A DNA stretch of 64,000 nucleotides from Bacteroidota bacterium. Lineage in GTDB: Bacteria > Bacteroidota > Bacteroidia > 2-12-FULL-35-15. Below the pieces are notes generated by a model. That model was not told where the DNA came from. It did no database searches and was given only the letters and a program-made list of their open reading frames with translations. Every line of letters begins with the position of its first letter. The stretch's first letter is position 1. Shown here one piece after another: positions 26,488 through 42,698 of this stretch. The position numbers and the translations under genes were made by a program. The stretch is from contig JAHEXZ010000019.1 of the NCBI GenBank assembly GCA_023251835.1, forward strand, positions 9,168 to 73,167, given 5' to 3'.

Positions 26488-26608
26488 TTTGTGGAATTCC
26501 CCGATAAAATCAGAAGGAGCAAGTCTTGTTTGTACTAGGAACTGAAGTTGTAACGCTGAAATGCTTACTTTTAACCCAAATTTTACAAAGTAAAATTTCT
26601 GCTTGCAG

Positions 26609-26674: not shown

Positions 26675-26736
26675 GGATTAACCCTGATGCCATATATATT
26701 TCAGCGCACTTTGCATTTTTTATAGGATATTAATCA

Positions 26737-29211
26737 ATGAAGAAATTATATATAGCACTTTTTTATAGCTTCCTTTTTATACTAAATAATGTTAATAGCT
26801 TCTCTCAATGTATTTCCTGTGATGTACATGCATGTATTGATGTGATTGATTATCTTCATGTTCAGGGTAACCAAATGTGGTGGGTTCATCAGGGAGGCTC
26901 AAACCCAGGCCAACATTCCAGTTGTTCTGGTGATGTATTATCTGTTAATGGAACACCTTGGGGAGCATGGAGTAATCCATTTATACTTGCCGGTGTTACA
27001 AGTTGTATGGATGTTACCTCCACAGTAACACAATGTTCTAATAGTTGCAGTCTAATACAAGCCCCTAGCGGAAATAATGGTTGGGAAACCATTTATAAAT
27101 TTGATGATAGCGGTCCTTCTGCGGCACACAATTATAAAATTCTTTTCACTTTTTGTCCTTTCACACCTACTTCTACTTTTTCTGTTAGTTCCCCTGCGTG
27201 TGCAGGAAATGACGTAACCATTACATATACCGACACAGCCACAGACACTGCGGCTTATAATTGGAATTTTGATGGGGCAACCATTGTATCGGGTTCAGGA
27301 AAAGGGCCTTATATAGTTAATTGGCCTGCCCCCGGTAATTATAATGTTACACTTGATGTTACAGAATGTTCCTCTACTTCTTCTACTACAACGGTTCCAG
27401 TAACAGTAGCAATAAGTCCTTCCTCTGCTTTTAATACTATATCACCTGTTTGTAAAGATTCAATTTCTGTCATTACATATACAGGCAATGGCTCTGGTAG
27501 TGCCAACTATAACTGGAACTTTGATGGAGGTAATATTATATCAGGCACCGGACAAGGACCTTATATGGTTAGTTGGCCTGTGGCCGGAACTAAAAATATT
27601 ACGTTACAGGTAGATGAAAACGGATGTCTTTCGCCTGTTACAACAGATACAATAACGATTATCGCTCCCCCAACATCAACTTTTACTGCTTCTGCGCCCG
27701 TTTGCCAGGGCGATATGGCAACAATTGCATACACAGGGAATGCCTTGGCAAGTGCTTCTTATAATTGGAATTTTGATGGTGGAACTATTGTGTCTGGCTC
27801 TACACAGGGACCTTATAGTATCCATTGGTCATCTTCTGGCACTAAAAATATCTCTCTTATTGTAACAGAAAACAGTTGTCCTTCATTAATAACAACGGTT
27901 CAGCAAATGGTTGAACCTCTTCCCTCGGCAAATTTCATATTTTCAGATGTTTGCTTAAATGAAACAATGTTCTTCAATGATTCATCAATTGCTTCAGGTA
28001 CGCCAATTGCCAGCTGGTCATGGAACTTTGGTGATAACAGCCCTGTTAACAATAACCAGAATCCCTCTTATACTTATAGCAACAATGCAACATATAGTGT
28101 TTCTCTACTGGTAACGGATAGCAGTGGCTGCAAAAATGCTGTTACAAAAACAGTTATTGTTCATCCGCTACCAACAGCTATCGTTTCTACATCAAATGTT
28201 TGTCACGGCTCTACAGCACAATTTAACAGCCAATCGGTAATCACAACCCCTGATAGTATTATTCTTTCGTTATGGGATTTTGGAGATGGCAATACTTCTG
28301 GTGGTACATCTGTTGCGCATCTTTACTCGGCAGCCGGATCATATTCAGTTAAATTACTGGTTACTTCAAATGCCGGTTGTCCTGATTCCGTTACTGCAGT
28401 ATTTGTTGTTAATCCCAACCCTTCTGTAGCTTTTATTTCCAGTGACACAGTTGGATGTACTCCTCTTTGTATTTCTTTCCAGGATTCAACTCCTGGCTCT
28501 AATATCCAGTGGGTGTGGCAAACTGGCGATGGAACAACAGTAAACAATTCACAGAATTTTAATCATTGCTATACAAATGATTCAGTCTTTTCACAAGTAT
28601 TTTACAGTCCAGGTATCACAGTTACTTCTGATAGTGGATGTATAAGCGCGTTAACAAAAAATAATTATATTGCTGTATATCCTAACCCACTTGCAGGTTT
28701 CATAGCTCAACCGGATACTGAACCTTACACCACTCCAATTATTTCGCTTACCGACTTATCTATCGGAACAACATCCTGGAAATGGAATTTTGGTGATCTT
28801 CAAACAGATTCTTCATCCACTCCTTTACCTCATTTTTATGCTGATACGGGAACCTATACTATAACTTTGATTTCATCTAACTCCTATAATTGTAAGGATA
28901 CGGCATATCAAACAGTAAGTATAGAACCCGATTTTGTATTTTATATTCCAAATGCATTCACTCCGGATGAAGACGGTATTAATGATACTTTTTCTGCTAA
29001 AGGAACCTTCGTCAGCTCTTATGAAATGAGAATATTTGACCGTTGGGGAAATATGGTTTTCTTCTCCGATAGTTTGGATAAACCTTGGGGTGGTAAAATA
29101 ATCAACAGTGAAACCACAGCCCAACGCGATGTATATATTTATTCGATTATGGTTACGGATATAAAAAACCGTAAACACAATTATAAAGGACTTGTTTCTT
29201 TAATTAGGTAA
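26737..29211 (+). CDS. Multi-PKD-domain surface protein with T9SS type-B (gliding-motility-associated) C-terminal domain
   Basis: Signal peptide; YNWNFDGG and WNFGD PKD-type repeats; C-terminal YIPNAFTPDEDGINDTF...IFDRWG...W.G...GLVSLIR. Confidence 0.9.
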   Translation: MKKLYIALFYSFLFILNNVNSFSQCISCDVHACIDVIDYLHVQGNQMWWVHQGGSNPGQHSSCSGDVLSVNGTPWGAWSNPFILAGVTSCMDVTSTVTQCSNSCSLIQAPSGNNGWETIYKFDDSGPSAAHNYKILFTFCPFTPTSTFSVSSPACAGNDVTITYTDTATDTAAYNWNFDGATIVSGSGKGPYIVNWPAPGNYNVTLDVTECSSTSSTTTVPVTVAISPSSAFNTISPVCKDSISVITYTGNGSGSANYNWNFDGGNIISGTGQGPYMVSWPVAGTKNITLQVDENGCLSPVTTDTITIIAPPTSTFTASAPVCQGDMATIAYTGNALASASYNWNFDGGTIVSGSTQGPYSIHWSSSGTKNISLIVTENSCPSLITTVQQMVEPLPSANFIFSDVCLNETMFFNDSSIASGTPIASWSWNFGDNSPVNNNQNPSYTYSNNATYSVSLLVTDSSGCKNAVTKTVIVHPLPTAIVSTSNVCHGSTAQFNSQSVITTPDSIILSLWDFGDGNTSGGTSVAHLYSAAGSYSVKLLVTSNAGCPDSVTAVFVVNPNPSVAFISSDTVGCTPLCISFQDSTPGSNIQWVWQTGDGTTVNNSQNFNHCYTNDSVFSQVFYSPGITVTSDSGCISALTKNNYIAVYPNPLAGFIAQPDTEPYTTPIISLTDLSIGTTSWKWNFGDLQTDSSSTPLPHFYADTGTYTITLISSNSYNCKDTAYQTVSIEPDFVFYIPNAFTPDEDGINDTFSAKGTFVSSYEMRIFDRWGNMVFFSDSLDKPWGGKIINSETTAQRDVYIYSIMVTDIKNRKHNYKGLVSLIR

Positions 29212-29646
29212 AATATTGATTTGGTGTAACGCCTCCGGGGTTATTTGTGCATTTTCTTGTACACCTTATTGATTTTTGGTGGGTTAAACCGGGATTTTTC
29301 AGTTGATTTTTTAAATCAACTGAAAACAGCTCCTGATAAGGAGCGTACCCGGTAACCCCGACTTAGAAAATCTTACCCTGAGCAATTTTGCGAAGTTTAG
29401 ATTTTATTAATCGTTTGCAGTTCAATAAAAATTGAACTGTAATATTTGGGTTAAAATAAATAATTTAAAAAAGGTATAATCTTCGTTTTTTTTCTTTAAC
29501 TTAGTATCTTTAGTACAATAGGGTTTCATATTGACCTTAACTTTATGAGAGATTCTGTAAGATAAATTTATGGATACAACTAAAAAAAGTTACAACATCA
29601 CTCAATAAATATATTAACCTGCTTTATTTATTAAAATTATCAAGTT

Positions 29647-31464
29647 ATGGAAACACACGTTAAAACCAATATTGAGCTTGGTGGTCAAAAAAAAATCACA
29701 GCTTTTAAACAACTGAATATTAAGCAGAGTGAAAACAATCATCATTCATTTGAGCTGAGATTGCCGCTTCAGGATGTTGAAGGCAATGACATTGTTAACC
29801 TTCAGAAAAGCAAAGATTTTATTGGCAAACCAATTAAAATAGAAATACTGCCTGAAAAAAATTCTAAACAAACAAACCAGTTTAATCAATTTAACGGAAT
29901 CATTACTGATATAAAAATTTCGCGCTTTGGCGGAAATATAAGTGATCTTATTATCTGTGGTTATAGCCCGACAATAATTTTGGATGATGGGCCCAACACC
30001 AGATCATTCTCAGAAAAATCATTAAGCCAAATCATCAATGAAGTTTTAAAACCTTATCCTAAAAATGATTTGATTTGTAAAATAAACCCTGTTCCTGATA
30101 CAACAATTCCTTTCTTAATTCAATATAATGAAAGTAATTTTAACTTCTTGCAAAGAATTACACAAACCTACGGACAATGGTCATATTATAATGGAAAAGA
30201 TTTTATTTTAGGTAACCTTGAATCAGATAATGACCAGATTGAATTAAACGTAGGCCAGGATTTGATCGATTTTGAATTAGGACTCCGATTGCGACCACTT
30301 AAATACAAAGCTACCAGCTATCAATATGAAGAAAATCAAACTATAGAACACTCCGGAAGCCAGGTTGCCCTTTCTGGGCTTGACCAAAACGGAAGCTTTG
30401 CCAGCCAGGAATCAGATAGTTTATATGGACAAGAACCATTAAACAATTCACATCATTTTTTTAAAAATTTAAATGAACAAAAAGATTTTTATAAAAGTAA
30501 AAAATCTTCAAATGCTGCCGGACTTGTAATTGCCAGAGGAATGAGTGTAAATCCTAAATTAAAAGTTGGCTCGAAAGTAACTATCAAATCTGCAGCAGAT
30601 AAACAAAAAGAAAATTATGGTTCTTATACCATTATAAATGTTTCGCATTATACAGATGGTATGGGTATATACAAAAACAGTTTTGAGGCAATTCCTTCTA
30701 CTTTAACCATTCCTCCTCAAAACCCAAACTGTAGCGTACCAACATGTGGTATTCAACCGGCAACAGTTAAAGACAATAATGATCCCGATAAATTAGGAAG
30801 AATAAGAGTACAATTTTTCTGGCAAAAAAGCCCTGAAAAAACGCCATGGATACGTATGGTTACTCCTCATTCCGGGAAGAATAAAGGCTTTCAGTTTTTG
30901 CCTGAAGTTGGTGATGAAGTATTAGTGGGCTTTGAAAATAATAATCCGGATTTTCCTTATGTAATTGGTTCCTTATATCATGGAAAAGCAAACCATTCCG
31001 ACAGGTTTGATGCCGACAATTATGTAAAAACAATTCGTACAGTAAGTAATAATGAAATAAAATTTTTTGATAAGCCCGGTGAAGAAACAATCACTATACA
31101 TAATAAAGAATCTGCCAACATTATTGTGTTGAATATTAAAGAAGATAAAATATACATTAAATCAAACGGCACAATTGAAATGCTTGCCAAGGATATAAAA
31201 GTAGATGCTGAAAAAACAATTAAAATGAAAGCAGATGAAATTACTATATCCTCAAAAAGCAAAATGTTGCTGGAATCAGAAAATTCATTTACTGTAAAAA
31301 ATAAAACTTCAAAAATGGAGTCGAACAGCAAAGCAGAAATTAAATCGGCAGGTAAAATGGAAATCCAGGCTGCCTCAGGCTTAGATATTGATGGCGGGCC
31401 AAAAGCGTCTTTATCGTCATCAGCTCAAATGGAAATAAAATCCGGACTGGTAAAGATTAACTAA
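29647..31464 (+). CDS. vgrG: T6SS spike protein VgrG (TssI), no C-terminal effector extension
   Basis: QYNESNFNFLQR, DPDKLGRIRVQF.W...TPWIR, FLPEVGDEVLVGFE..NPD.PYVIGSLY; ends VKIN. Confidence 0.93.
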   Translation: METHVKTNIELGGQKKITAFKQLNIKQSENNHHSFELRLPLQDVEGNDIVNLQKSKDFIGKPIKIEILPEKNSKQTNQFNQFNGIITDIKISRFGGNISDLIICGYSPTIILDDGPNTRSFSEKSLSQIINEVLKPYPKNDLICKINPVPDTTIPFLIQYNESNFNFLQRITQTYGQWSYYNGKDFILGNLESDNDQIELNVGQDLIDFELGLRLRPLKYKATSYQYEENQTIEHSGSQVALSGLDQNGSFASQESDSLYGQEPLNNSHHFFKNLNEQKDFYKSKKSSNAAGLVIARGMSVNPKLKVGSKVTIKSAADKQKENYGSYTIINVSHYTDGMGIYKNSFEAIPSTLTIPPQNPNCSVPTCGIQPATVKDNNDPDKLGRIRVQFFWQKSPEKTPWIRMVTPHSGKNKGFQFLPEVGDEVLVGFENNNPDFPYVIGSLYHGKANHSDRFDADNYVKTIRTVSNNEIKFFDKPGEETITIHNKESANIIVLNIKEDKIYIKSNGTIEMLAKDIKVDAEKTIKMKADEITISSKSKMLLESENSFTVKNKTSKMESNSKAEIKSAGKMEIQAASGLDIDGGPKASLSSSAQMEIKSGLVKIN

Positions 31465-31535
31465 GAATTTTTGAATTTTAGAGTTAAAGGAATTGCAACT
31501 ATAGAAAGTATAATTCAAAAATTACAAAAAAACGT

Positions 31536-31964
31536 ATGCAATATTATAGCTTCCCTTTATTATTTACCGACTTATTAAAAAAAAACGATCTGGCAAAATG
31601 CCGTGATATAAAAGAATCTATAAGTCAGAACATTCATTTGATTTTAATTACCCATTTCGGAGAATATAAGCAGGATCCTTCCTATGGGTGCTCTATCTGG
31701 GATAATGATTTTGAAAATATTGTTTCAATAAACTTATGGAAAGAACAGGTTGGAAAGTCTTTAAAAATTGTTTTAACTAATCATGAACAACGATTAACAA
31801 ATATTACTGTTAAAACAGATATTGGGCAGGAAGAAGTTGTAAACTCACACTTAAAAAAACTAAAGAAAAAGGTAGAGGTTAGTGTTGAAGCCAATATAGT
31901 TGAAACCAATGAACCTTTTTATTTTAGAGACAGCCTATTCATTAGTCCTTTATCTTTTGATTAA
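31536..31964 (+). CDS. tssE: T6SS baseplate TssE (gp25-like)
   Basis: SISQNIHLILIT.FGE...YGCSIWD.DF...E.RL...FISPLS. Confidence 0.88.
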   Translation: MQYYSFPLLFTDLLKKNDLAKCRDIKESISQNIHLILITHFGEYKQDPSYGCSIWDNDFENIVSINLWKEQVGKSLKIVLTNHEQRLTNITVKTDIGQEEVVNSHLKKLKKKVEVSVEANIVETNEPFYFRDSLFISPLSFD

Positions 31965-31967
31965 TAT

Positions 31968-33821
31968 ATGAGTAACAATAACACCAGTGACAAGATTAAA
32001 AACCGCTTGTTAAAAAATGCTTCCCTGCTTTGGGGAGTCCAACAAGCTGAGCTGAGCGGATTCGATCCTGTTGTAAATATGCTTTTTGGCTCCTGCTCAA
32101 AAGAATTTGAAAAAATATATAATGAACAGGATGCATCTCAGGCAAGAGTTTTGGAAAGACTCTCTAAACTGCTTTTACCGGAAGTAAATGTTGGATCCAT
32201 ACCAGCCCATGGAATTGTTCATGGCAGACCCAATGAACCTGTTTCTATTTTGAGTAAAAATTCGCAGTTATTCTATAGAAAAAGCAGGCCTGCAAGTGAA
32301 AGCAGCTATAAAGAAAATTATTTTGATATTCATTTTGCCCCGCTTAGTGATGTATTGATAGTAGATGGAAGAATTAAATATTCAGTATCTCCACACGGAT
32401 TATATGAACACAAAGATGTTTATATCAAAGAAAAACTTTTTGGTTATGAAAATAACATCTCTAACAAACTCACCTGCTATCTTGGAATAGAGCTAAATTC
32501 AGCTATTGAAAACTTAGACAAACTTAGTATTTACTTCGACTGGTCGTCCAATTCTGAAAAAGAACGGCTGTATGATTCTTTACCTTTTGTAAGATCCTCC
32601 ATTGATGGCAGGGAAATTCCTGCTTCCACAGGTTTTAAAATGGGTAATCTGAATTTAAAAAGCGAGTTTGTGTTAAATGAAAGCAATGACCTGTTAAACA
32701 ATATTGAACATACTGTAGCTTCTTTCTATAAAAACAGGTTTATTACTATAGATATTAAAAATAAAAAAGGAGGCATTAATTCCATTGAAAAGAAGAAATA
32801 TCCTTTACACTTTCCTGACTTGTTTGGCCCCAAAAATTTAGATAAACTACAATCAGATTTACTATGGATTGAATTTAAATTTCCTTCTTATATTTCTGAC
32901 GAGGTTCTTGATGAATTGGTTTGCACTATTAACTCTTTCCCTGTTTGTAACAAAAAACTAAATGAATTAACATTCAGAATTCAATCAAATTTTAATATAG
33001 TTCCGTTAAGTACACACGAGGACTATTTATATAACGTGCAGTCAGTTAAATCATTCAATGGCGAACGCTATAATTCTATTAAAGTATCTGATACCAATAA
33101 AATAGAAAATGGCGAATATGTAGTCAGAAAGGGAGGAGTTGAAAGGTTTGATCAACGAAATGCCAAAGACCTGCTGAATTATTTAATTGATTTGCTTAGA
33201 GATGAAAGTGCTTCTTTTGCCCTCTTCGGGCAGGAAGCCATTTCAACCAATTTATTTGAATTAAACCAGCAATTAGCTGCGCTTGAACAAAAAGTAAAAA
33301 AAGGAAAAGGTGGGGAAGCTGCTAATTATTTAATGATAAAACCTAAATCAACAAAGGATAATATTTTTGTTGAATACTGGACTACTGCCGGTGAAAAAGC
33401 AAACAATATACGAATAGGGTCTAAACTACTTACCTCTTCAGCCATTGATATAAGAACAGATGAGCTTATTTTACTCTCTAATACACTTGGTGGCAGAGAC
33501 CCTCTAAACCAGTCTGAAGTATTAAATAATTTTAAGTCGGCATTAATTACAAGGGACAGGATTGTAACCACAGCCGATATCAAAGTTTTTTGCACTAAAG
33601 AGTTTCAGGGACAAGTGAAACATATTTCATTTGAGAAAAAATTTGAGGTGAGTGATAAAGCCAATGCAGGCTTTGTTAAATATTTAGAAGTAGAAATAGA
33701 GCCTGCCAATTATGAAAAATATAAACCTGAAGAATGGGAATCAATAGCTGCTATTCTACAGTCAAAATTAGAAACAAAATCATCTTTTATATTGCCTCTT
33801 AAAGTGCGGATCAAGAATTAA
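31968..33821 (+). CDS. tssF: T6SS-iii baseplate TssF
   Basis: IKNRLLKNA..LWG...FDPVV.ML, N.FPV.N, R.GGVERFD.RNA, LITRDRIVT..DIK.FC. Confidence 0.88.
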   Translation: MSNNNTSDKIKNRLLKNASLLWGVQQAELSGFDPVVNMLFGSCSKEFEKIYNEQDASQARVLERLSKLLLPEVNVGSIPAHGIVHGRPNEPVSILSKNSQLFYRKSRPASESSYKENYFDIHFAPLSDVLIVDGRIKYSVSPHGLYEHKDVYIKEKLFGYENNISNKLTCYLGIELNSAIENLDKLSIYFDWSSNSEKERLYDSLPFVRSSIDGREIPASTGFKMGNLNLKSEFVLNESNDLLNNIEHTVASFYKNRFITIDIKNKKGGINSIEKKKYPLHFPDLFGPKNLDKLQSDLLWIEFKFPSYISDEVLDELVCTINSFPVCNKKLNELTFRIQSNFNIVPLSTHEDYLYNVQSVKSFNGERYNSIKVSDTNKIENGEYVVRKGGVERFDQRNAKDLLNYLIDLLRDESASFALFGQEAISTNLFELNQQLAALEQKVKKGKGGEAANYLMIKPKSTKDNIFVEYWTTAGEKANNIRIGSKLLTSSAIDIRTDELILLSNTLGGRDPLNQSEVLNNFKSALITRDRIVTTADIKVFCTKEFQGQVKHISFEKKFEVSDKANAGFVKYLEVEIEPANYEKYKPEEWESIAAILQSKLETKSSFILPLKVRIKN

Positions 33822-34742
33822 ATGAAAACAGTCCCCTTAAAAGTTGATGGTATAGCTTCCGATGTTAAAGCCGAAGTTATAGGAGCAGGTCTGGTTGAAA
33901 ATGGCACCAGGATAGATGATATTGTTATTAAACCTGTTGGCATTTCACAACGTAATGTAAGAAAAGATGTACTCGAAATTTACTATAAACAGGGAGCTCC
34001 TGACAATGAAGAATACCTGTTTTTAGATGTTTCAAGGGAAAGTATATACGATACCTTACCCCAAGGTGTTTTTCATCAAGCCAAAATTACCGGAAGAAAA
34101 AGAACTTCCGATGATTTAATCGAGGAAATGAAACTGTTTAAAAAACAGGAAGAAGCCGCCAGGCTCTTTTTTCTTGCACTCGAAAAAGAATATGGCAGAC
34201 TCCGCTTATCAGAGGAATTAGAAGAAAGAAAATCTATTCTTGGTTTTTCAGAACACTATAAATATGACCTGTATTTAAAAATATGGCCTGAATTAAAAAA
34301 AATTGACCCAAAATATCTTCCCCTTCTGTTTCAGATTCTTCCTGAAAGCTACAAAATATCAGGTAACTATAAGCTAATTTCAAAGTTATTAGAGATTGTT
34401 TGTAATAAACCTGTTGATATAAAAAAAATAGAAAATTCAAGAATAAATTATGCCAATACTGTCCATAACAATTTAGGAAATTGTTTATTGGGGCTCAACT
34501 TTATTCTTGGTAACCAATATATTGACTTTGACCCGCATCTTGAAATTAATGTCAGAGAAATTGAAAGAAAGGAATTAGCAGACTTTTTGCCCAACGGCAA
34601 AATCAGAAAAGTAGTAGACCTATTATGTGAACATTTTTTTTCTTATTCGGCTGAAATTAATGTACTTTTGTTTTTGCAAAAAGAGGAAGAAGGTATCTAT
34701 TTATCGGATGGGGAAGTTGTAAGTTACTTAGGTTATAATTAA
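33822..34742 (+). CDS. tssG: T6SS-iii baseplate TssG
   Basis: D.KAEV, SRESIYD.LP.G.FH, EEAAR.FF; abuts tssF. Confidence 0.85.
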   Translation: MKTVPLKVDGIASDVKAEVIGAGLVENGTRIDDIVIKPVGISQRNVRKDVLEIYYKQGAPDNEEYLFLDVSRESIYDTLPQGVFHQAKITGRKRTSDDLIEEMKLFKKQEEAARLFFLALEKEYGRLRLSEELEERKSILGFSEHYKYDLYLKIWPELKKIDPKYLPLLFQILPESYKISGNYKLISKLLEIVCNKPVDIKKIENSRINYANTVHNNLGNCLLGLNFILGNQYIDFDPHLEINVREIERKELADFLPNGKIRKVVDLLCEHFFSYSAEINVLLFLQKEEEGIYLSDGEVVSYLGYN

Positions 34743-34756
34743 ATTCCAACGAATTA

Positions 34757-34784
34757 CGCCCTTTGACTTCGCTCAGGGTGACGC
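34757..34784. repeat. Bacteroidota REP-like element
   Basis: gccctttgacttcgctcagggtgacg resembles the CTTCGAC..CGCTCAG..TGAC repeat type; relatives near 35785, 35817 and 56880. Confidence 0.55.
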
Positions 34785-34849
34785 GAGTTACAAATGACTA
34801 AACATGTTTGTAATCCCGGAAATGTTCGTAATTCGATAAAATTCGTAGT

Positions 34850-35707
34850 ATGATTTTACTTTCATTTATAAATAAAAGCCAGTTTATACCAATTATATTT
34901 TTCACCATTGCTGTGGCATTGGCATCTGTTTTCTTTGCTTTAAAAACCTATAATAAATCCATAAGTTTTAAAGTATTTATGATTTATTCCATAATTACGA
35001 TTGTTGTATATGGCAGCTCCGGGTTAATTGGTTTTCTTGATATAGACAGTTCTTTAAAAGTTTTTATTATCTCTCAATTCCTGTTTTTCACTTTCGGGAT
35101 TGTACATTATATTTTTTTGAACAGGTATATTGCGGCAGATAACAATGGCACTTTTTTTCAGGAGGTTATTTTTACACTTTATATAGCTATCCTTGGTATT
35201 TTAGCATTCCAGCTAATTTATTCATTTACCCCTCTGGCAGAATATGCATTGCTATTTTCTGCCGCACAAATAACATTTTTACTGCCTTTTTTAATAATTA
35301 AATCTGCTGAGCTGGCAGTATTAATCCCTGAAAAAATATATACTAAATGGTATTTCCCGGATAACCTTGATATTGATATTCCTGAAGAGCAATTAGAAGA
35401 TAAAAACATTATTTTAACTGAGATTCAGGTTCAAAGAAGTCTTGAAAGCCCGGATGTTATACCTATTCGAGGAAGGGCTCCTCTTAAAATGGAATTTGGG
35501 TTGTATTTTGCCTTGGCAATTGCAGAATACAATGATTCAAATCCAGGTAAACAAATAAGAATAACTGATGATATGGATGCCGTTTATGGATGGAATTTCT
35601 ATTTTAAGCCTAAATTTTTTAGCTCACATGAACTTATTGATCCCCAAGTTTCAATCAGAGAAAATGGAATACGGGAAAATGATGTAATAATTGCAGAAAG
35701 GGTATAA
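34850..35707 (+). CDS. tssN: T6SS-iii membrane complex protein TssN
   Basis: Five N-terminal TM helices, then IP.KIY..W, RAP..M.FG..F...YN, W.FY.KP, N.I.ENDVII.ER. Confidence 0.85.
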   Translation: MILLSFINKSQFIPIIFFTIAVALASVFFALKTYNKSISFKVFMIYSIITIVVYGSSGLIGFLDIDSSLKVFIISQFLFFTFGIVHYIFLNRYIAADNNGTFFQEVIFTLYIAILGILAFQLIYSFTPLAEYALLFSAAQITFLLPFLIIKSAELAVLIPEKIYTKWYFPDNLDIDIPEEQLEDKNIILTEIQVQRSLESPDVIPIRGRAPLKMEFGLYFALAIAEYNDSNPGKQIRITDDMDAVYGWNFYFKPKFFSSHELIDPQVSIRENGIRENDVIIAERV

Positions 35708-35732
35708 AAAAATTATAGAATTTTAGATTTAT

Positions 35733-35890
35733 AGTATCTGTTTAAATTTTATTCGAAAAGAATACAGTGAATGCTCCCGCACATATTTCGACAGAGCTCA
35801 ATATGACCACGCACGAGGTCAGTCTGGGCTTGTCGAAGACGTTGGGCTGTTATAGCAAAATATTTCAATAAAATTTAAACAATTTCTTAT
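35733..35890. mobile_element. MITE-like element carrying a REP doublet, between tssN and tssK
   Basis: Perfect 15-bp IR tgtttaaattttatt (35739-35753) / aataaaatttaaaca (35867-35881); internal ttcgacagagctca...tgggcttgtcgaa pair. Confidence 0.6.
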
Positions 35891-35979
35891 AGATTTATAG
35901 AATTAAATCTAAGAAAAAAAACAACTCTAAACCTGTCCTGACGACAGGTCAGGATTCAACAACACTAAAATTAATAAGC

Positions 35980-37140
35980 ATGTCAGGAAAATATAACTTT
36001 ATCAACTGGGTAGACGGAATGAAAATAAGCCGCTCCCATTTTGAAGCTGAAGAAAATGCACTTATTTACCAGTTAGGTGAGGTAGCTTCAGTTGTGGTTA
36101 ATAAATTTAACTATGGTTTACTACTACCATCAACAGGCCTGGCATCTTCATTAAAAGTAAATCTTGATGTTGACCGGGCCAAACTGTTACGAATAAGTAT
36201 TTCAAGATGTAAAGCTGTTACTCCCGGAGGAGTTCTCATTGATATTAATGATCAAAACGAAGTTAACAAGCAAAATACCTTAGCTGCTTTATCCGAAGAA
36301 TTTAAATTAGACGACCTTACCAATGGCCGCTCCTACTATATTACCATATCTGTTAATCCTTATTCAAAAAATCCGATAGGTACACCAGATCCATCTGAAA
36401 ATCCTCCACGCTACCCTTTTGCTGATTATACCTATTCATTGAATTTGTTAGCTACAGATGATATGAATATTAGAGAAAATGGAGCTTATCATATTGCTAT
36501 CGGTAAACTTAAAGTGGTACCAAATGGTATTGAAATTGACGATAGATACATCCCTCCTTCATCCAGAAGTAATAGCCAGATTGATTTAGCTGAAGCCTGC
36601 AAAGATTTAGATGGAGCTTTGGGCCAAATGGAACTTAACAGCTGTTCAATAGTTCAAAAAATATACAAAAAAGAACAACAAAATGTATTGGCCAAAACTA
36701 TACTCTATCTTGTTGAAGATTTAGTTAGGTATTTAAGCACAACCGTTCACCATTTCCGGTGGCAGGTTCCGGAACAGCCTCCTGTTGCACTTATTGAATA
36801 TTTTGCAGCAATGGCTCGCCAGATAAAAAATTCAATTGATGCAAAAACCGGAACAGGAAAAGAAGAAATGCTGAATTATTTTCATGACTGGGTAGTTGAA
36901 ATTAACCAGGGAGAGTTTGAAGCAATTATTGACGAAATGGTAAATGTTGAATACAATCATAACGATATAAATCAGGCAATGCAGGTTGTTGAAAAATTTG
37001 TATTCACACTTTCTTCCATACTTAGCAAATTAAGTAAACTTGATTTTATTGGAGATAAGAAAAAAACTGGAATTATTGTTACTTCTGAAAAAGCTGAAAA
37101 TACAGACAAACCTAAAAAAAGAAATTTTTTAATATCATAA
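35980..37140 (+). CDS. tssK: T6SS-iii baseplate TssK
   Basis: INWVDGMKI...HF, NYGLL, C.AVTPGG..I, G.PDP.ENPPRYP, YIPP, Y.HNDI. Confidence 0.87.
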   Translation: MSGKYNFINWVDGMKISRSHFEAEENALIYQLGEVASVVVNKFNYGLLLPSTGLASSLKVNLDVDRAKLLRISISRCKAVTPGGVLIDINDQNEVNKQNTLAALSEEFKLDDLTNGRSYYITISVNPYSKNPIGTPDPSENPPRYPFADYTYSLNLLATDDMNIRENGAYHIAIGKLKVVPNGIEIDDRYIPPSSRSNSQIDLAEACKDLDGALGQMELNSCSIVQKIYKKEQQNVLAKTILYLVEDLVRYLSTTVHHFRWQVPEQPPVALIEYFAAMARQIKNSIDAKTGTGKEEMLNYFHDWVVEINQGEFEAIIDEMVNVEYNHNDINQAMQVVEKFVFTLSSILSKLSKLDFIGDKKKTGIIVTSEKAENTDKPKKRNFLIS

Positions 37141-37146
37141 ATTTAT

Positions 37147-37668
37147 ATGGAGCCATTAAACTCAAAAGACCGTCTTTGGGCCATTGTTAAACTTTCTTTA
37201 TTATTTCTATTAACCTTTATAATTTTTATAGTTGCCATATTTTTTGATTATGGAGGAGTTCCTTTAAAAGAAAACCAGCTATTAAAAGAAGAAAATAAAA
37301 AGTTAAAAGAGGAACAAGCGGAACTGAATAAATTGTTTCAGCAGTTAGATTCCGTATATGTTAATATATTAAAATTAGACAACGACCCCAATGGTATTAT
37401 AAAAAGCACTGTTGCCGGTCAAATGGTTGCTATTTCCGGCTTTGCAAAATCCGAATCAAAATTAACAAGCAAAATTTCAAATAATGCTTTTAATTCCTAT
37501 TCAATCATTCTTTCTGAGAAGCAAAAAACAATGGAAAGTGCCGGACTAAATAAAGATAAAGAAAAACTCGAAACTGAAATTAAAGATCTGAAAGACCAGC
37601 TGAAGGATATGAAAGAAGAGTTAAAGGATTGTGAAACCGAGTTAAGAATGGGTTCGAGGAATAACTAA
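37147..37668 (+). CDS. tssO: T6SS-iii membrane complex protein TssO-like
   Basis: MEPLNSKDR...F, single N-terminal TM, coiled coil ending L..C; follows tssK. Confidence 0.7.
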   Translation: MEPLNSKDRLWAIVKLSLLFLLTFIIFIVAIFFDYGGVPLKENQLLKEENKKLKEEQAELNKLFQQLDSVYVNILKLDNDPNGIIKSTVAGQMVAISGFAKSESKLTSKISNNAFNSYSIILSEKQKTMESAGLNKDKEKLETEIKDLKDQLKDMKEELKDCETELRMGSRNN

Positions 37669-37694: not shown

Positions 37695-38372
37695 CTAATA
37701 AAACCTAAACTTTCTTGGTTTATCAGAATCCTGCTCCTTTTGCGTTTCCGGAGTTTTGTTTTTATCAGGTGGTGTGTGTGTGTCTTCTGTTTTTAAATCT
37801 GCTGATTCTATGGCATTATTTTTATCCTCTGAGGCATTTTTTACCTGCTCCAATAGCTTTTCTTTTCCAATTGTAGTAAATATTTCTTTAGACGGTATTC
37901 GCTGCGTTATTAGTTTCATATTGTCATGAAAAAATATCAAAGCAAATGCAGGGTCTTCATCTTCACATATAAATTTTGAAATGGGGCCAAAAAATTCGCG
38001 GAGCTGTGCTGCATCACAGGTGGGAAGAAAAATGCGAAGTACTCTGGGGTCATAATAACGAAAATAGAGTTGTTTGCCATCTTCAGTTTTAACCATTAAA
38101 AAACGCCTGAAATGCCTGTGAAGTTCAATTAATTCTTTATCCGAAAGTATGTATATCCCCCATGATTTACCCCAGCCGGTATCAAGCACCCAATTAAGAA
38201 ACGTTGAATTTCCATAACAGCTGAAAAGATAGGGAGCCACCTCCGAAAGTTCTTCCTCTGGCTGCCCCTTGTACAACGACAAGCCTTCCGGATTTAGCCT
38301 GTGTGCTGCTTCCATTTCGCAATCTAACCTGGCTGCATCGAGTATTACTGAATACTTTGTATTAATTGACAT
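37695..38372 (-). CDS. DUF4123 T6SS effector chaperone/adaptor
   Basis: ILDAAR, SLY.G...L..VAPYL, WG..WGI, L.RHFRRFL.V...G..LYFRYYDPRVLR.FLP. Confidence 0.9.
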   Translation of the reverse strand: MSINTKYSVILDAARLDCEMEAAHRLNPEGLSLYKGQPEEELSEVAPYLFSCYGNSTFLNWVLDTGWGKSWGIYILSDKELIELHRHFRRFLMVKTEDGKQLYFRYYDPRVLRIFLPTCDAAQLREFFGPISKFICEDEDPAFALIFFHDNMKLITQRIPSKEIFTTIGKEKLLEQVKNASEDKNNAIESADLKTEDTHTPPDKNKTPETQKEQDSDKPRKFRFY

Positions 38373-38671
38373 TTGAATTTACTCGGTTGATTTAGATTGT
38401 AGTTATTACGTTTCTGTTATTATTGGTTAACGTAAGTTACAGATTAGTTTCTAATCCGTAAAAATTGAATTGTGTACCCAATAACATATATTTATTAATA
38501 TTTCGGTGCGCTGCACCTGACAGATTAACAATCGATTTTAATAATCCACAACTTACGTTAGTTAGTATGTATTGGGTACCAGTAGTTCGGAGAGCGTGCC
38601 TTTTCCTTTTTAATGTCTACGAACTATCTCAATAGCCCAATAACTCAATAACCACTAACTTAATAACTATC

Positions 38672-39454
38672 TTAAAGAACAACCACTAACTTTTTGTCTT
38701 TCATACATAGATATATTGGAAATGCCGTAGTAATGCCACTTTCAGCATTATAATACTGAAGAGGCGACCGGTTTTCATCATTTATTATGGTTACTAACTT
38801 CCCAAAAGCATGAAGTTCCGGTTTCTTCACCTGAATATCAAAATCAATAAGTTCGTTTGCCGGGTCTTCAAAAGTTTCTGCATAAGACTCACGCAGGCTA
38901 TTCAGATGGCTGTTTAGATTTTTATAAACAGAATCTGCATACACTTTATTTTTTATACCAGTAAGCCTGAAAATTGCATCTACATTTTTATTTTTAAGAG
39001 CTTTATGATATTCTTTATAAATATCCATAATTTCACTTACTGTCTGTTCATTAAGCTTTAACACGGGTGATGTACTCCAAAGAGGGGCATCTAATAATAA
39101 AGTTGCTTTAAACTCTTTTTTTGAAGAAATAACAGACTGCTTAAGTTTTTCATCGTTGTGGTAATCCGGGAACTCGGCAGAAGCCAGCAATTGGCGATTC
39201 TCTCTTACATCATTTATATCTCTATAATAGATTTCGAAATTTGTTTTTGTATGATCAACAAATTCGCTTTCATGTTTAGCAGGTGAAACAGATACCTGCA
39301 AAATATTTATTCCATTGATCAAAAGGTGATTGATAGGAAATTCAACAGATGTTGGCTTTCCTTCATTATCTGCATACAAGGGTATATCATTAATTTTTAT
39401 ATCAAAACAAGCAGATATAGCATTTATTTGCAGCGTATAATAAGTTTGATTCAT
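38672..39454 (-). CDS. Hypothetical protein, candidate T6SS immunity protein
   Basis: No signal peptide; starts 9 bp after the candidate effector; C.FDIKINDIP...PIN.L N-terminus; role inferred from position only. Confidence 0.5.
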   Translation of the reverse strand: MNQTYYTLQINAISACFDIKINDIPLYADNEGKPTSVEFPINHLLINGINILQVSVSPAKHESEFVDHTKTNFEIYYRDINDVRENRQLLASAEFPDYHNDEKLKQSVISSKKEFKATLLLDAPLWSTSPVLKLNEQTVSEIMDIYKEYHKALKNKNVDAIFRLTGIKNKVYADSVYKNLNSHLNSLRESYAETFEDPANELIDFDIQVKKPELHAFGKLVTIINDENRSPLQYYNAESGITTAFPIYLCMKDKKLVVVL

Positions 39455-39463
39455 GATAAATGA

Positions 39464-41047
39464 TTATGGTTTTTTAAAATCATAACTAAAAAATTCGTAT
39501 TTGCTTTCAAACGTTTTTTTATAAAGTTCATGTTTACCCTCAGGCCCATATCCCGCGTGAGAACCATACTTATTGTGTCCTGTATCACTATGAGCTCCAC
39601 CAAATGAGTTCATTCCACTCCACCAAATGGACAAATCGAGCATTCCACCCACACAATTTAACACTTTTGAATTCGAGACATAGCTTATTGCAACTTCAAA
39701 TCCGCTTTCAACACCTACCTTATACTCCATAGTAGCGTGGACTATCCATATATCTGTGTCAACCCTAAGAACAGTTAATTCGGCTGCAAGTGGAATTTTT
39801 CCTTTTATTTTACCGGTGACATTTTCTATTTCTCTGTTTTTGATAACAAGTTCAATTTCTCCGGCAATTTCAACTCCGGCCTTAAGAACTAATTCTAAAA
39901 AACCATCCACCAATCTTTGCTTAATTTTTTGAAAAACTATGCCCCCTGGCAGAGATTGTAATACTGTTGTTGTAATATTCCATTCCAGAAAAAAACCAAT
40001 AAGGGGATTTGTTTCAAGTTTTATTTTGCCTTCATAAGTAACGGTAGGCAAACCGGAATCCTCTTGCCAGGAGCCACCAACGTGGAGATCTACCACGGGT
40101 AATTTTATACCGAGCGCCACAGGGCTATCAAAAATCTGAGTTACACCAGCCGCATCTTTTTTTCCCTTTATTTGTGATAGTGCCACCTTGGCCTTATCTA
40201 CAATTTTACCAACCTTTTCTAATGTTTCAATTGTTTTTTGAAAAACAACTTCAACCTTATGTTCATGGCCATCGTACTTTATTTCTCCCCCAACACGCAC
40301 TCCTTTTTTTACTTCCGTAGATTTTTCCTGGGTTGTAGTTGTTTTTATCCTACCCATTCCATTTCGGGCATCGGCTCTTGCCGCTTTTCTATTTCCTGGT
40401 GTTTGCTCAACCTCTACCCTGTCATCAGTCCACCCTTTTTTTTCTCCGAAGTTAAAACCAATAAATACATCAGTTTCAGTATCAGGGTAAACTTCAATGG
40501 TAACAGATTCGCTAAGATGCCCACATCGGTTAGCATTAATGGAATATTTGTCAGTAGCTAATCCCCAGGGAAACAACTGAATACGGGTACTGGAAGTAAC
40601 ATCAAGTTCCAATTTATTTTCAGTGCTGGATGGTAATATTTTGAAGGTATTACTACCTGTATTAAAGCTGCGTTTATTGTTGTGGGTTTCAGGGCAAGGT
40701 CCTGCGGGGCCTTTTAACTCAACAGATACTTTTGCTGGTTTATTTTTAAAACCCGCTACAATTCCAATCGTTCTTTGGGTAGCGTTGGTGGAACGTGATA
40801 CAATCAGATCAAATTTACGTTCGGGTTTAGTTACTTTAACAGCAGTAAAGTTACATACCTTGTTATTAGGATCATTTTTGGGTGCAGGTTTGTTGGCTAA
40901 AGGACAATTCTGCACAGATGTTGATGGAGGTACATTGGTGGTATTTTTAGCAATATTCTTTTTAACATCTTTAGTAAGATCTGCATCTGATTTTGCCGGT
41001 GGTGGATACCAATGACCATTAGAAGGTGTATTAACGGGTTCTGCCAT
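39464..41047 (-). CDS. Hypothetical 527-aa protein, candidate T6SS effector
   Basis: Long ORF between PAAR and DUF4123 genes; Pro-rich N-terminus with VQNCP; no recognisable catalytic motif. Confidence 0.55.
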   Translation of the reverse strand: MAEPVNTPSNGHWYPPPAKSDADLTKDVKKNIAKNTTNVPPSTSVQNCPLANKPAPKNDPNNKVCNFTAVKVTKPERKFDLIVSRSTNATQRTIGIVAGFKNKPAKVSVELKGPAGPCPETHNNKRSFNTGSNTFKILPSSTENKLELDVTSSTRIQLFPWGLATDKYSINANRCGHLSESVTIEVYPDTETDVFIGFNFGEKKGWTDDRVEVEQTPGNRKAARADARNGMGRIKTTTTQEKSTEVKKGVRVGGEIKYDGHEHKVEVVFQKTIETLEKVGKIVDKAKVALSQIKGKKDAAGVTQIFDSPVALGIKLPVVDLHVGGSWQEDSGLPTVTYEGKIKLETNPLIGFFLEWNITTTVLQSLPGGIVFQKIKQRLVDGFLELVLKAGVEIAGEIELVIKNREIENVTGKIKGKIPLAAELTVLRVDTDIWIVHATMEYKVGVESGFEVAISYVSNSKVLNCVGGMLDLSIWWSGMNSFGGAHSDTGHNKYGSHAGYGPEGKHELYKKTFESKYEFFSYDFKKP

Positions 41048-41067
41048 AGCTTTATTTTTTTATGATA

Positions 41068-41421
41068 CTAAGATAACTGATTGCGTTTATATACTTCTTT
41101 ACAAATCTGAACTATTTTATCGTCTTCATTACGTTCCGGCCAGGTGAGTATCTCAATCGCCCATTGTGGCATACGTGGATGAAAATAGTTGGGATTTTCA
41201 GCAACTGTAAGTATATACATGAAAACATTTTTAGAGTCATATATACCATAATTGTTTGCCATTTTTATTTTGCTTAAAATAAAAGTTTCCCACTCACCAT
41301 CAGGCCGGGTTGCATATACTTCCGGATGTTCATCTTTGATAAGTTTTTTACAGGATAATACAAAATCCCGGAATTTAATATCATTAATTTGTTCAAGCTG
41401 TTGTTTTTTGATGATAAGCAT
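41068..41421 (-). CDS. Small hypothetical protein, candidate co-chaperone of the PAAR/DUF4123 module
   Basis: 117 aa, MLIIKKQQLE...F...A..YGI...WA.EIL; located between PAAR and the candidate effector. Confidence 0.55.
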   Translation of the reverse strand: MLIIKKQQLEQINDIKFRDFVLSCKKLIKDEHPEVYATRPDGEWETFILSKIKMANNYGIYDSKNVFMYILTVAENPNYFHPRMPQWAIEILTWPERNEDDKIVQICKEVYKRNQLS

Positions 41422-41474
41422 GATAATTTCAGATGTTTGATTTTGTAATTGCTGTCATCAACTTTATAAATAAT

Positions 41475-41790
41475 TTAATTCAATTTCAATCCATGTTTAA
41501 AAAGAAATTCTATGTATTCCCACATTTGAATAACACTTGTTTCTGCAGAAGAATAAGGATATAGCATTCCTTTAAATAGTTTATGTTCCGCTTTATATTT
41601 TTCAAACATTTTTATATTTGAATTAAATACGCAAAATTCAACGTTTGCAATCCTGTCGGCAAGTTTTAATGGAATTGACTTTGCATTGGATTGTAATTTT
41701 TTATAGACCTGCATTTTTCTTTCTTCTCTTTTTAGACTCTTATCGTCAGTGACAGCCCAAACATGTTCAGCTATTTCTTTTCCAAAACAG
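41475..41790 (-). pseudogene. N-terminally truncated RelA/SpoT-type HD hydrolase (small alarmone hydrolase-like)
   Basis: FG.EIA..V.AVTDDK...RK...KLADRIAN is present; the upstream HD metal-binding half is absent and replaced by the PAAR 3' end in another frame. Confidence 0.68.
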
Positions 41791-42241
41791 CAGGAGAAGG
41801 GCCATTTGCTGCACTCATCATAGCCTGCTGACATTTTTCACAGAATGGAGCCCCGGTATCGGCAGCTTGTTTTAAAGCAGTTACCTGAGAGAGTTCAGGC
41901 ACTACAGTAACCATCTCCAGCAACATCTGAAGTGGCATACCTCCTGAATTTTCACCGATTAATACAGTAGGGCATCCTACAACAATAGCTCCACCGTGTG
42001 CACATTTATCGCCTAAACGAGCTGCCGGCTTTCCACCTATGAAAACACCGGTTGAGCCCTTAACAATAGTATCAGGAGGGCCTGTACATACACACATATC
42101 CGTCATAACTGCTGCCGGCATACCTCCTATTAAAACTGTAGGACATCCCGGACCAATGATTGGGCCGCCAACATGCGGAACGGTTCCTGTTACCATTGGG
42201 CAGGTATGCATATCACCTATTCTTGCTGCCGGCTTTCCCAT
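41771..42241 (-). CDS. PAAR spike-tip protein with C-terminal extension
   Basis: PAARIGD.HTCP, MPAA, KPAARLGD..AHGG; tail ending AADTGAPFCEKC. Confidence 0.93.
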   Translation of the reverse strand: MGKPAARIGDMHTCPMVTGTVPHVGGPIIGPGCPTVLIGGMPAAVMTDMCVCTGPPDTIVKGSTGVFIGGKPAARLGDKCAHGGAIVVGCPTVLIGENSGGMPLQMLLEMVTVVPELSQVTALKQAADTGAPFCEKCQQAMMSAANGPSPAVLEKK

Positions 42242-42292
42242 TCGTTTAATTTTACAGGTTTATATTATTATAATAATTCCATAATAAAGTTT

Positions 42293-42650
42293 TTATGGGC
42301 ATATCCAAAGTGATACTCTGGTTAAAATAACTCCTGTGCCACTGGTAGGGAGGTTAAACTCATCACCATACAGAAGTTTGGTACCATCCCATAACGAAAA
42401 ATGTCCGGTTGCATCGCTCCAACCACTTACATCAAATGCAATGATTCCTTTTTTATTATAGAAATCAACTTGTCGTATTTTGGTTCCTTTTTCAATAATA
42501 GTAGGTGACCCGAACACATTATGCATATATTTTTTTAGTTCCGCCACCCTATATCCGTATAGCAAACCATCGCCTCCCTTTATAACCTCCATACCATGTC
42601 CTCGCTTTATCCTGTATGCTACACCGGCATAATTTAATGCTTTAGAATGT
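42293..42650 (-). pseudogene. Truncated Tae4-like peptidoglycan amidase effector
   Basis: SKALNYAG...YRV.EL...KGII.F...GWSDATGHFSLWDG; an in-frame TGA just upstream removes the N-terminal catalytic Cys motif. Confidence 0.72.
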
Positions 42651-42667
42651 ATAAATTGCTCCTCTCA

Positions 42668-42698
42668 CAAAGATATAAAAAGGAGAGGACAAATCAAA
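42668..42698 (-). promoter_or_regulatory. Primary-sigma promoter for the effector cassette
   Basis: Minus strand TTTG-N19-TATCTTTG. Confidence 0.5.

Follow-up and report, generated by a model that had tools for sequence, protein, structure and literature searches.

How a type VI secretion system (T6SS) of subtype iii is supplied with cargo when its VgrG carries no effector tail is the question raised by a five-gene cassette in a Bacteroidota bacterium of the lineage 2-12-FULL-35-15 (GenBank assembly GCA_023251835.1). The stretch of DNA analysed, called the window below, comprises 64,000 nucleotides (positions 9,168–73,167 of the forward strand of contig JAHEXZ010000019.1). Next to a T6SS-iii locus it contains minus-strand genes for a PAAR spike-tip protein, for proteins of 117, 527, and 260 residues (p117, p527, and p260), and for a DUF4123 protein. 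The initial annotation had described these genes as a proteobacterial-style loading module, possibly acquired across phyla. Comparison with related loci indicates, with a probability of about 0.7, that the cassette is a module providing the T6SS-iii next to it with cargo, on the plan of the Pseudomonas aeruginosa system PAAR4/TecT/co-TecT/TseT, in which TsiT is the fifth named gene, and that it is a recurrent design of Bacteroidota and not a recent import from Proteobacteria. A literature search of the openly available main texts found DUF4123 adaptors described for Proteobacteria only and undescribed for T6SS-iii or Bacteroidota, and gave no name for the p117 family. The word DUF4123 occurs zero times in a review of accessory factors of the T6SS from 2026 (PMC13584744). 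Loading of the T6SS-iii of Bacteroidota has so far been attributed to other accessory proteins, in Bacteroides to a DUF4280 tip with Ate3 as its adaptor, and DUF4123 is named for enterobacterial loci only in the accessible part of that report (PMC13402684).

The host machine belongs to T6SS subtype iii, since it combines the TssN, TssO, and TssR membrane-complex genes with phage-like core genes. Pfam matched TssC (E = 6.9e-215), TssN (E = 3.1e-58), and TssO (E = 2.4e-12), together with Hcp, VgrG, TssE, and TssG; tssB and tssF were assigned by position only, and the match of tssK is weak. The gene tssR is located outside the window contig, on contig C7 of the same genome. The absence of an effector tail from VgrG holds, as its Pfam domains reach residue 603 of 605 and the protein ends ...MEIKSGLVKIN without a C-terminal extension. 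The cassette converges on tssO, and the stop codons of tssO and the DUF4123 gene are 26 nucleotides apart. All five open reading frames (ORFs) lie where the initial annotation had placed them (Table 1), and all are intact and of full length compared with their homologues. The PAAR protein (PF05488, E = 6.8e-26) exceeds its cut-off of 27 bits with a score of 90.7, and the DUF4123 protein (PF13503, E = 4.8e-31) exceeds its cut-off of 25.8 bits with one of 107.9; p117, p260, and p527 matched no Pfam or NCBIfam family.

In the available part of PMC11582642, the N-lobe of DUF4123 adaptors binds a short C-terminal helix-turn-helix of VgrG with a conserved cysteine pair, and the variable C-lobe binds the effector. 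TecT is described there as an N-lobe only, which binds the C-terminal extension of its PAAR protein, and co-TecT as a separately encoded C-lobe, which binds the effector. The corresponding observations for the window, obtained from sequence and comparison, are the domain identities, the gene order, the shared tail motif, the fusion and adjacency of p117 and DUF4123, and the co-occurrence of p527 and p260. In the scheme proposed, the PAAR protein would cap the tail-less VgrG, and its C-terminal tail, ending AAxxGxPFCExC, would be the docking site to which the 225-residue, N-lobe-only DUF4123 protein binds. The p117 protein would be the detached C-lobe, binding the p527 effector and joining it to the DUF4123 protein, and p527 would be fired with the spike, while the cytoplasmic p260 would protect the producer and its kin. 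All protein contacts, secretion, toxicity, and immunity in this scheme are inferred.

The closest counterparts of the cassette are in other Bacteroidia. A search with an alignment of the p527 family located three loci (L003, L004, and L005) from metagenome-assembled genomes of Bacteroidia or Bacteroidetes. L003 and L004 have the gene order of the window, with PAAR followed by proteins of about 115, about 538, and 260 residues and by DUF4123; L005 has the same order, but its contig ends before DUF4123. Identities within the five-gene order are 57–75% in L003, L004, and L092. The last is from a genome of the window's genus that carries the cassette; it duplicates a locus already in the set and was counted once. 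Remote versions of the whole cassette are present in L009, L019, L021, L027, L039, and L065.

Scanning a single genome from each species confirmed at least 593 relatives of the DUF4123 protein, the best-ranked of which are almost all from Bacteroidota, with identities of 42–59%; they include strains of Spirosoma, Fibrisoma, Dyadobacter, Adhaeribacter, and Segetibacter. The best 80, picked by their likeness to a Bacteroidota alignment, were kept as loci: 47 are labelled as Bacteroidota (mainly Chitinophagales, 18, and Cytophagales, 9), and the rest come from Acidobacteriota, Planctomycetota, Myxococcota, and a few other phyla. Adding L003 and L004 to the 47 gives 49 Bacteroidota-labelled loci; L001, L002, and L006, which are from the window's own genome or unlabelled, were left out, and the proteins of the window were compared by tblastn. 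A PAAR gene is present in 42 of the 49 loci (22 of the 24 with full 7-kb flanks), and it is positioned upstream of DUF4123 on the same strand in 39 of the 49. At least one T6SS core gene was found in 24/49 loci and in 19/24 of those with full flanks, at least three core genes in 19/49 and 16/24, and TssN or TssO in 14/49 and 14/24. The usual layout is tssC-hcp-vgrG, PAAR, 2.5–4 kb of cargo, DUF4123, and tssE-F-G-N-K-O.

The PAAR protein of the window has a core that extends to about residue 96 and is followed by a C-terminal tail. The initial annotation had given the tail about 60 residues and PFCEKC as its end. The protein is indeed tailed; however, PFCEKC occupies residues 132–137, and the chain runs 19 residues further. 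The protein is 69–73% identical to the PAAR proteins of the syntenic loci L003–L005, and tail residues 97–137, GMPLQMLLEMV...ALKQAADTGAPFCEKC, are kept in four of four syntenic PAAR proteins. The tail of the window ends ...AADTGAPFCEKC, which is a short C-terminal motif with a cysteine pair, encoded beside DUF4123. It would form two helices and serve as the docking site of the DUF4123 protein. Tails of at least 30 residues occur in 45 of 50 Bacteroidota PAAR ORFs, and CxxC in 33 of the 50, typically as ...AAxxGxPFCExC; such tails are present in 4/14 PAAR ORFs of other phyla.

In the other phyla, the same motif is found at the end of VgrG, in 17 of 23 ORFs (10 with CxxC and 7 with one cysteine). 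The 17 motif-bearing VgrG ORFs stop 63–172 nucleotides before the start of DUF4123, and the six without the motif are at least 370 nucleotides away. Among the Bacteroidota VgrG ORFs of related loci, none of 17 has the tail motif. A profile of 22 Bacteroidota PAAR tails matched 20 non-PAAR ORFs at E ≤ 0.01, in 19 of them no more than 13 residues from the C-terminus. Seventeen of the 20 end directly upstream of DUF4123 (locus position 7001), those in L033 and L055 are also upstream of DUF4123, and that in L079 ends about 2.2 kb before it; 13 are VgrG-sized (681–931 residues), and seven are shorter. The profile is biased, since the 22 tails were chosen by their PFCxxC motif, but where its matches fall does not depend on this selection. 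The proposed docking element thus appears to be carried by PAAR in T6SS-iii and by VgrG in the other phyla, in whose loci VgrG comes immediately before DUF4123. A second PAAR gene with the same tail is present on contig C95 of the window's genome (L088, 2–1597); its tail continues into an ADP-ribosyltransferase domain (PF01129, E = 2.8e-12), a gene for 178 residues follows, and the contig begins inside the PAAR gene.

The DUF4123 protein matches its family profile with residues 8–125, corresponding to profile positions 2–118 of 119. In an alignment of 22 sequences (A4), conservation ends near residue 160 and gives way to a low-complexity stretch of variable length. The Bacteroidota homologues mostly have 162–226 residues. 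The protein of the window is, as judged from this alignment, of the short, N-lobe-only (TecT-type) form with about 160 structured residues. It stays below the curated cut-off of the NCBIfam family Tla1 (NF053803), scoring 44.8 bits against 200. Within its C-terminal 60 residues, the low-complexity linker leads to the end KPRKFRFY. Short basic-aromatic motifs of this kind (elsewhere ...KTKWNMFD or ...GWSFLV) also terminate many other DUF4123 proteins of Bacteroidota, after a linker of variable length, and could be a contact peptide for p117 or the baseplate.

The partner expected of an N-lobe-only adaptor is a separate C-lobe, and p117 is the candidate. In most Bacteroidota cassettes, a hidden Markov model (HMM) built from p117 and 24 small homologues matches the gene after PAAR, irrespective of the effector encoded next. 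When all ORFs of the loci are searched, family members occur in 32 of the 49 Bacteroidota-labelled loci and in 14 of 32 loci of other phyla. In the other phyla, its gene is directly downstream of a short DUF4123 gene, or of DUF4123 and then PAAR. One protein of 459 residues (P0240) joins a DUF4123 domain (residues 17–135, E = 1.7e-32) to p117-family domains from residue 205 onwards and is the only fusion that was verified. A small gene is thus linked to short DUF4123 genes and fused to DUF4123 elsewhere, and because of this adjacency and fusion p117 resembles co-TecT as it has been described. Two further apparent fusions, in L072 and L077, were rejected: p117 is read there in the frame of DUF4123 and begins one codon after its stop, so that two genes are split by one stop codon. 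The family has a single form of about 115 residues and a tandem form of about 250 residues; four proteins of 252–271 residues match the HMM twice each. Among 1.84 billion representative sequences, the p117 profile matched 7,760 at E ≤ 0.001 and 2,234 at E ≤ 1e-10, and all six named members that were looked up are called "hypothetical protein". The ESM Atlas model of p117 aligned over 114 residues (TM score 0.78) with a 340-residue cluster in which 96% of the members have PF13503; the alignment lies outside the Pfam domain of the cluster and is a lead, not a test. In four Cytophagales loci (L038, L047, L052, and L080), a protein of 920–978 residues comes after PAAR and there is no separate p117 gene. 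Two of these proteins show, over their first approximately 30 residues, a weak likeness to the beginning of the p117 profile (E about 1e-3); this could be a fused or replaced co-adaptor.

The remaining two genes of the cassette are strictly linked. Searches of 5.8 billion clustered proteins gave eight homologues of p527, with identities of 41–63%. Iterated searches located p527 homologues, remote ones included, in eight cassettes, and a p260 homologue follows next to each of them (8/8); p260 is also next to a p527 homologue in L005 and L092 and has been seen only together with p527 homologues. A scan for p527 loci with the single protein produced 40 pattern matches and zero confirmed loci. The two proteins are read, from this linkage, as a candidate effector–immunity pair of a new family. 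The AlphaFold2 (AF2) model of p260 (pLDDT 92) has a β-sandwich at residues 4–117 and an NTF2-like half; residues 132–260 gave NTF2-like folds as nearly all of the top 50 structural matches (best Z 7.6, rmsd 3.0, 104 aligned residues), and a Foldseek search returned nothing at E ≤ 0.001. Because residues 4–21 are modelled as β-strands, p260 is read as a cytoplasmic protein without a signal peptide. NTF2-like folds are frequent among the immunity proteins of polymorphic toxins. The model of p527 is less certain (pLDDT 60.6) and has a β-sandwich at residues 69–200 and long β-hairpins from residue 310 to the end. In an exhaustive structural comparison, residues 190–527 resembled outer-membrane β-barrels, with the NalP translocator (Z 9.5, rmsd 3.8, 173 aligned residues) ahead of AIDA-I (Z 9.1) and CymA (Z 8.7); the best value is slightly above the Z of 7–8 that unmatched models typically reach. 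Foldseek against the PDB found nothing at E ≤ 0.001 and Ig-like sandwiches only, the family profile against PDB sequences had a best E of 0.19, and the Atlas look-alikes of p527 are unnamed proteins of 512–561 residues. A membrane-active role of p527 is a guess from the model and rather unlikely to be right.

The roles of the small proteins could also have been assigned wrongly. The p117 protein would then be an immunity protein, an anti-toxin, or a chaperone specific to PAAR, and p260 would be a second chaperone that keeps a β-rich effector soluble, with immunity encoded elsewhere or unneeded because the target is not bacterial. Neither p117 nor p260 belongs to a Pfam family, p260 is a cytoplasmic protein of two domains, the model of p527 is like a membrane barrel, p117 of Bacteroidota adjoins PAAR and not DUF4123, and a covariation test gave equal counts for p117 and DUF4123. 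However, the p117 family accompanies unrelated effectors. In other phyla its gene comes immediately behind a short DUF4123 gene, P0240 unites it with DUF4123 in one protein, and it matches that part of long DUF4123 proteins which Pfam does not cover. The exclusive occurrence of p260 with p527 homologues and its NTF2-like fold are as expected of an immunity protein. Such a misassignment is improbable, and p117 is preferred as the co-adaptor and p260 as the immunity protein. A kinship of p117 and p260, suggested by an iterated search that drifted, was rejected; hhalign gave a probability of 0.7%, and the p117 HMM misses the p260 family.

If the architecture resembles that of a proteobacterial system, the module might have been acquired from a T6SS-i of Proteobacteria and then added to a T6SS-iii, as the initial annotation had proposed. 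Several facts favour such an import. The experimentally characterised DUF4123 adaptors are proteobacterial in the available part of PMC11582642, and the corresponding part of PMC13402684 sets the adaptors of Bacteroidota against enterobacterial DUF4123. DUF4123 is rare in the phylum, being present in one of 400 other Bacteroidota genomes drawn evenly and in none of the 14 genomes of that sample above the TssN cut-off (the two counts refer to the same genomes as far as these are listed). T6SS-iii is patchy in the window's genus, with TssN above the cut-off in 4 of 60 other genomes, and Pseudomonadota supply more of the Atlas look-alikes of p117 and p527 than any other group. The site of the cassette also differs between two genomes of the genus. 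In the genome of L092, it is placed after tssR and an ABC-transporter gene; in the window's genome, contig C7 carries the homologues of both genes but lacks the cassette. Between the two genomes, flanking proteins are 65–82% identical and cassette proteins 58–75%. The different sites indicate that the cassette changed place among T6SS neighbourhoods within one genus.

By contrast, the phylogeny and the distribution of the cassette argue against an import. A maximum-likelihood tree of 78 DUF4123 domains, from which L026, L048, L049, L056, L072, and L077 were dropped because the matched stretch crossed a stop codon, sets 51 rows apart from the 27 that belong to other phyla (ultrafast bootstrap 99, SH-aLRT 96). 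The clade of 51 contains 46 Bacteroidota-labelled rows, the window, the genus genome, one unlabelled contig, and contigs labelled as Phycisphaerales and Hyphomicrobiales. Within it, the DUF4123 of the window groups with L003, L004, and its genus genome at 100/99, and its nearest relatives are in the same five-gene cassette of other Bacteroidia. In a separate search, 1,623 candidates yielded 1,423 relatives at E ≤ 0.001; the 120 best have identities of 43–92%, and all seven of these that are named by organism are Bacteroidota. Many of the cassettes are embedded between vgrG and tssE of T6SS-iii loci, and the GC content of the window's cassette (0.34–0.40) is similar to that of its surroundings. 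In the window's genus, DUF4123 is present in three of the four other TssN-positive genomes (the fourth is 84% complete) and in none of the 23 TssN-negative genomes among G001–G024. Together with the position of PAAR and the core genes in the related loci, these counts make such cassettes largely routine in T6SS-iii loci, the very situation in which the proposed acquisition across phyla was to be given up. The cassette is not universal, and many T6SS-iii genomes are without it. The tree excludes a recent import, and a T6SS-i-type module from Proteobacteria is a very improbable source. The loading system of adaptor and co-adaptor put forward in the initial annotation is backed by the N-lobe-only DUF4123 protein, the adjacency and fusion of p117, and the tail motif, but its origin across phyla is not. 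The module is better described, on this comparison, as an established Bacteroidota design that apparently moves between T6SS-iii neighbourhoods. Two loci labelled as Phycisphaerales and Hyphomicrobiales (L019 and L053) nest in the Bacteroidota clade, and L019 carries the whole PAAR-p117-p527-p260-DUF4123 cassette; their placement reflects either mis-binning or a real transfer out of Bacteroidota.

Table 1 Positions of the cassette, its host locus, and neighbouring features within the 64,000-nucleotide window
Feature	Positions	Strand	Description
DUF4123 gene	37695–38372	−	225 aa; PF13503 match
C-terminal 60 residues of DUF4123 protein	37695–37880	−	linker and basic-aromatic end
p260 gene	38672–39454	−	260-aa ORF; putative cognate immunity protein, cytoplasmic; β-sandwich and NTF2-like domain
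p527 gene	39464–41047	−	527-aa ORF; putative T6SS effector
p117 gene	41068–41421	−	117-aa ORF; putative stand-alone equivalent of the DUF4123 adaptor C-lobe (co-TecT-like co-adaptor)
PAAR spike-tip protein gene	41771–42241	−	156 aa; PF05488 match
PAAR tail, residues 97–137	41831–41953	−	proposed docking motif for the DUF4123 N-lobe
HD_4 phosphohydrolase gene remnant	41475–41834	−	119-aa ORF; likeness to the HD_4 protein of L005
Tae4 amidase-effector remnant	42296–42646 (homology); 42293–42592 (ORF from first ATG, 99 aa)	−	Pfam and tblastn
Short dispersed repeat copy	38442–38532		in the 299-nt gap between p260 and DUF4123; blastn against the window's genome
Promoter-like motif TTTG-N19-TAtcTTTG, Bacteroidota type	42668–42698	−	upstream of the cassette, at the end of the annotated interval
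Second match of the promoter-like motif	22936–22967	+	immediately upstream of tssB
T6SS-iii core locus	23033–37668	+	tssB (putative), tssC, three hcp, PKD/CHU_C gene, vgrG, tssE, tssF (putative), tssG, tssN, tssK, tssO
VgrG gene	29647–31464	+	605 aa
tssO	37147–37668	+	Pfam TssO
Transposase-like ORFs	22026–22765	+	two short ORFs
PKD/CHU_C gene	26737–29211	+	824 aa
Giant type IX secretion substrate gene	6171–15647	−	3,158 aa

The initial annotation had also assigned the cassette a promoter-like motif of its own. The motif is present upstream of the cassette; however, the consensus, that of Bacteroidota-type promoters, matches the window six times against 4.4 expected by chance, and the number of matches alone therefore means little. 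Between positions 37400 and 42900, neither sigma-70 type promoters (17 against 19.7 by chance) nor terminators (3 against 4.3) are enriched, and an Rfam scan of the window gave no match.

Around the T6SS-iii locus, two short transposase-like ORFs immediately upstream (DDE_Tnp_1_4, E = 1.2e-10; IS1380, weak) look like fragments of one insertion sequence (IS) element. The product of the gene between the hcp trio and vgrG combines a CHU_C signal for type IX secretion with five PKD domains, and a PKD gene is also near tssR in L004 and on contig C7. Further away, a gene encodes a giant substrate of the type IX secretion system (T9SS), with 21 T9SS-associated galactose-binding-like repeats and a Por_Secre_tail.

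The cassette is part of a decaying effector island that also contains remnants of a Tae4 gene and an HD_4 gene, two items overlooked in the initial annotation. The Tae4 remnant, located between the promoter-like motif and PAAR, matches PF14113 (E = 6.9e-13). Unlike complete Tae4 amidase effectors, its 99-residue ORF covers only positions 31–105 of the 125 in the family profile. According to tblastn, it corresponds to residues 76–192 of the intact 192-residue Tae4 protein of L005, with 73% identity, and the likeness starts directly after the NNTC stretch of that protein. Residues 1–75 of the L005 protein have no counterpart in the window, and the domain is thus incomplete. The loss of approximately 75 N-terminal residues identifies the gene as a 5′-truncated remnant that lies outside the loading module. 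In L003, the same gene is reduced to about its last 35 residues upstream of PAAR, and in L005 it is intact and followed by a gene for 129 residues; the three states point to a probable repeated decay at one island.

The HD_4 remnant ORF overlaps the 3′ end of the PAAR gene by 64 nucleotides. Its alignment with a 183-residue HD_4 protein of L005 has 63% identity and skips about 46 residues that include ...LLHDSVEDT..., and tblastn aligned residues 81–183 of that protein at 69%. The 119-residue ORF has no Pfam match, HD_4 (PF13328) included, and the stretch with the HD motif is deleted. The PAAR protein of L005 has 335 residues, and the same tail is followed in it by a C-terminal domain without a known family; its gene is succeeded by one for 89 residues and by the intact HD_4 gene. 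The simplest reading is that the fused toxin domain, the neighbouring gene, and part of the HD_4 gene were deleted in the lineage of the window. The L005 genes may represent a toxin with two protective genes. A RelA/SpoT-like identity of the C-terminal domain was dropped, as its best Pfam match had an E of 0.05 and was to an unrelated family.

The island has also received a repeat. The gap between p260 and DUF4123 (38373–38671) has 299 nucleotides in the window against 10 in L004 and about 150 in L003, and it contains a dispersed repeat of about 90 nucleotides that is present on at least six other contigs of the genome. The blastn matches are 87% identical over 91 nucleotides on contigs C65 and C2 and are shorter on four more contigs. 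Could the cassette itself be a remnant that no longer functions? Besides the truncated Tae4 gene, the internally deleted HD_4 gene, and the repeat, the apparent loss from the window's PAAR of a toxin domain still fused to the PAAR proteins of L005 and C95 and the location of tssR on a different contig are in agreement with such decay. The five ORFs are intact, though, toxin-free PAAR proteins of 145–154 residues occur in the same gene order in L003 and L004, and the promoter-like motif has been kept. A non-functional cassette is therefore quite improbable, and a complete cargo module amid decaying neighbours is preferred.

Several observations nevertheless weigh against the cassette being such a module of Bacteroidota origin. 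The trees of p117 and of DUF4123 both need three changes of effector-type label, so nothing marks p117 rather than DUF4123 as the effector-specific part. The tail motif has been kept on PAAR proteins that are fused to toxins (L005 and C95) and therefore could be partly a linker. The absence of a signal peptide from p260 fits poorly with a p527 model that is like a membrane barrel. The repeat inserted between p260 and DUF4123 and the remnant state of two neighbouring genes mean that the activity of the cassette is not assured. The related loci were chosen by their likeness to Bacteroidota sequences, and the tree was computed without the characterised proteobacterial DUF4123 proteins; an ancient transfer, in either direction, is thus compatible with the tree.

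A broader proposal, which is tentative and has somewhat less than an even chance of being correct, is that one split adaptor standard exists across T6SS subtypes and phyla. It would consist of the DUF4123 N-lobe, a C-lobe of the p117 family, and a portable AAxxGxPFCExC motif, located at the C-terminus of VgrG where Acidobacteriota, Planctomycetota, and Myxococcota have VgrG-linked loci and moved to the C-terminus of PAAR in the T6SS-iii of Bacteroidota, whose VgrG is tail-less; p527 and p260 would be a new toxin–immunity family with a β-barrel-like C-terminal half of the toxin. For the window alone, the initial annotation was mostly correct and over-read the origin, and the portable docking motif is the modest wider point. 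If the cassette functions as proposed, the TecT/co-TecT principle is used by many environmental Bacteroidota (Chitinophagales, Cytophagales, and some Flavobacteriales and Bacteroidia). The tailed PAAR gene with the p117-family gene and the short DUF4123 gene would then mark the ends of cargo cassettes, so that new T6SS-iii effectors could be sought in genomes by a simple rule, and the p117 family would deserve a name.

As far as the available descriptions of the known systems go, the cassette shares with PAAR4/TecT/co-TecT/TseT/TsiT a PAAR protein with a C-terminal extension, an N-lobe-only DUF4123 protein, a small separate co-adaptor, and a stand-alone effector with its immunity gene in one cassette. 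It differs in serving a T6SS-iii of the TssN/TssO type, not a T6SS-i, in its order PAAR-p117-effector-immunity-DUF4123, in having an effector and an immunity protein without a named family, and in being known here from genes alone. Tap6 and Tap14 are described as DUF4123 adaptors with two lobes whose target is the helix-turn-helix at the C-terminus of VgrG6 and VgrG14 (PMC11582642). This docking element is short, has two helices and a pair of cysteines, and the PAAR tail of the window carries a motif of the same kind; however, the motif is on PAAR, VgrG is tail-less, and the adaptor is split into two genes. The system Pte3/Ate3/Bte3 of Bacteroides fragilis, as presented in the available part of its description, belongs to the same T6SS subtype and likewise loads the spike tip by means of a dedicated accessory protein encoded beside the effector (PMC13402684). 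Pte3 is a PAAR-like protein of the DUF4280 family (PMC13402684), whereas the tip in the window is a canonical PAAR protein, and its adaptor would be DUF4123 together with p117.

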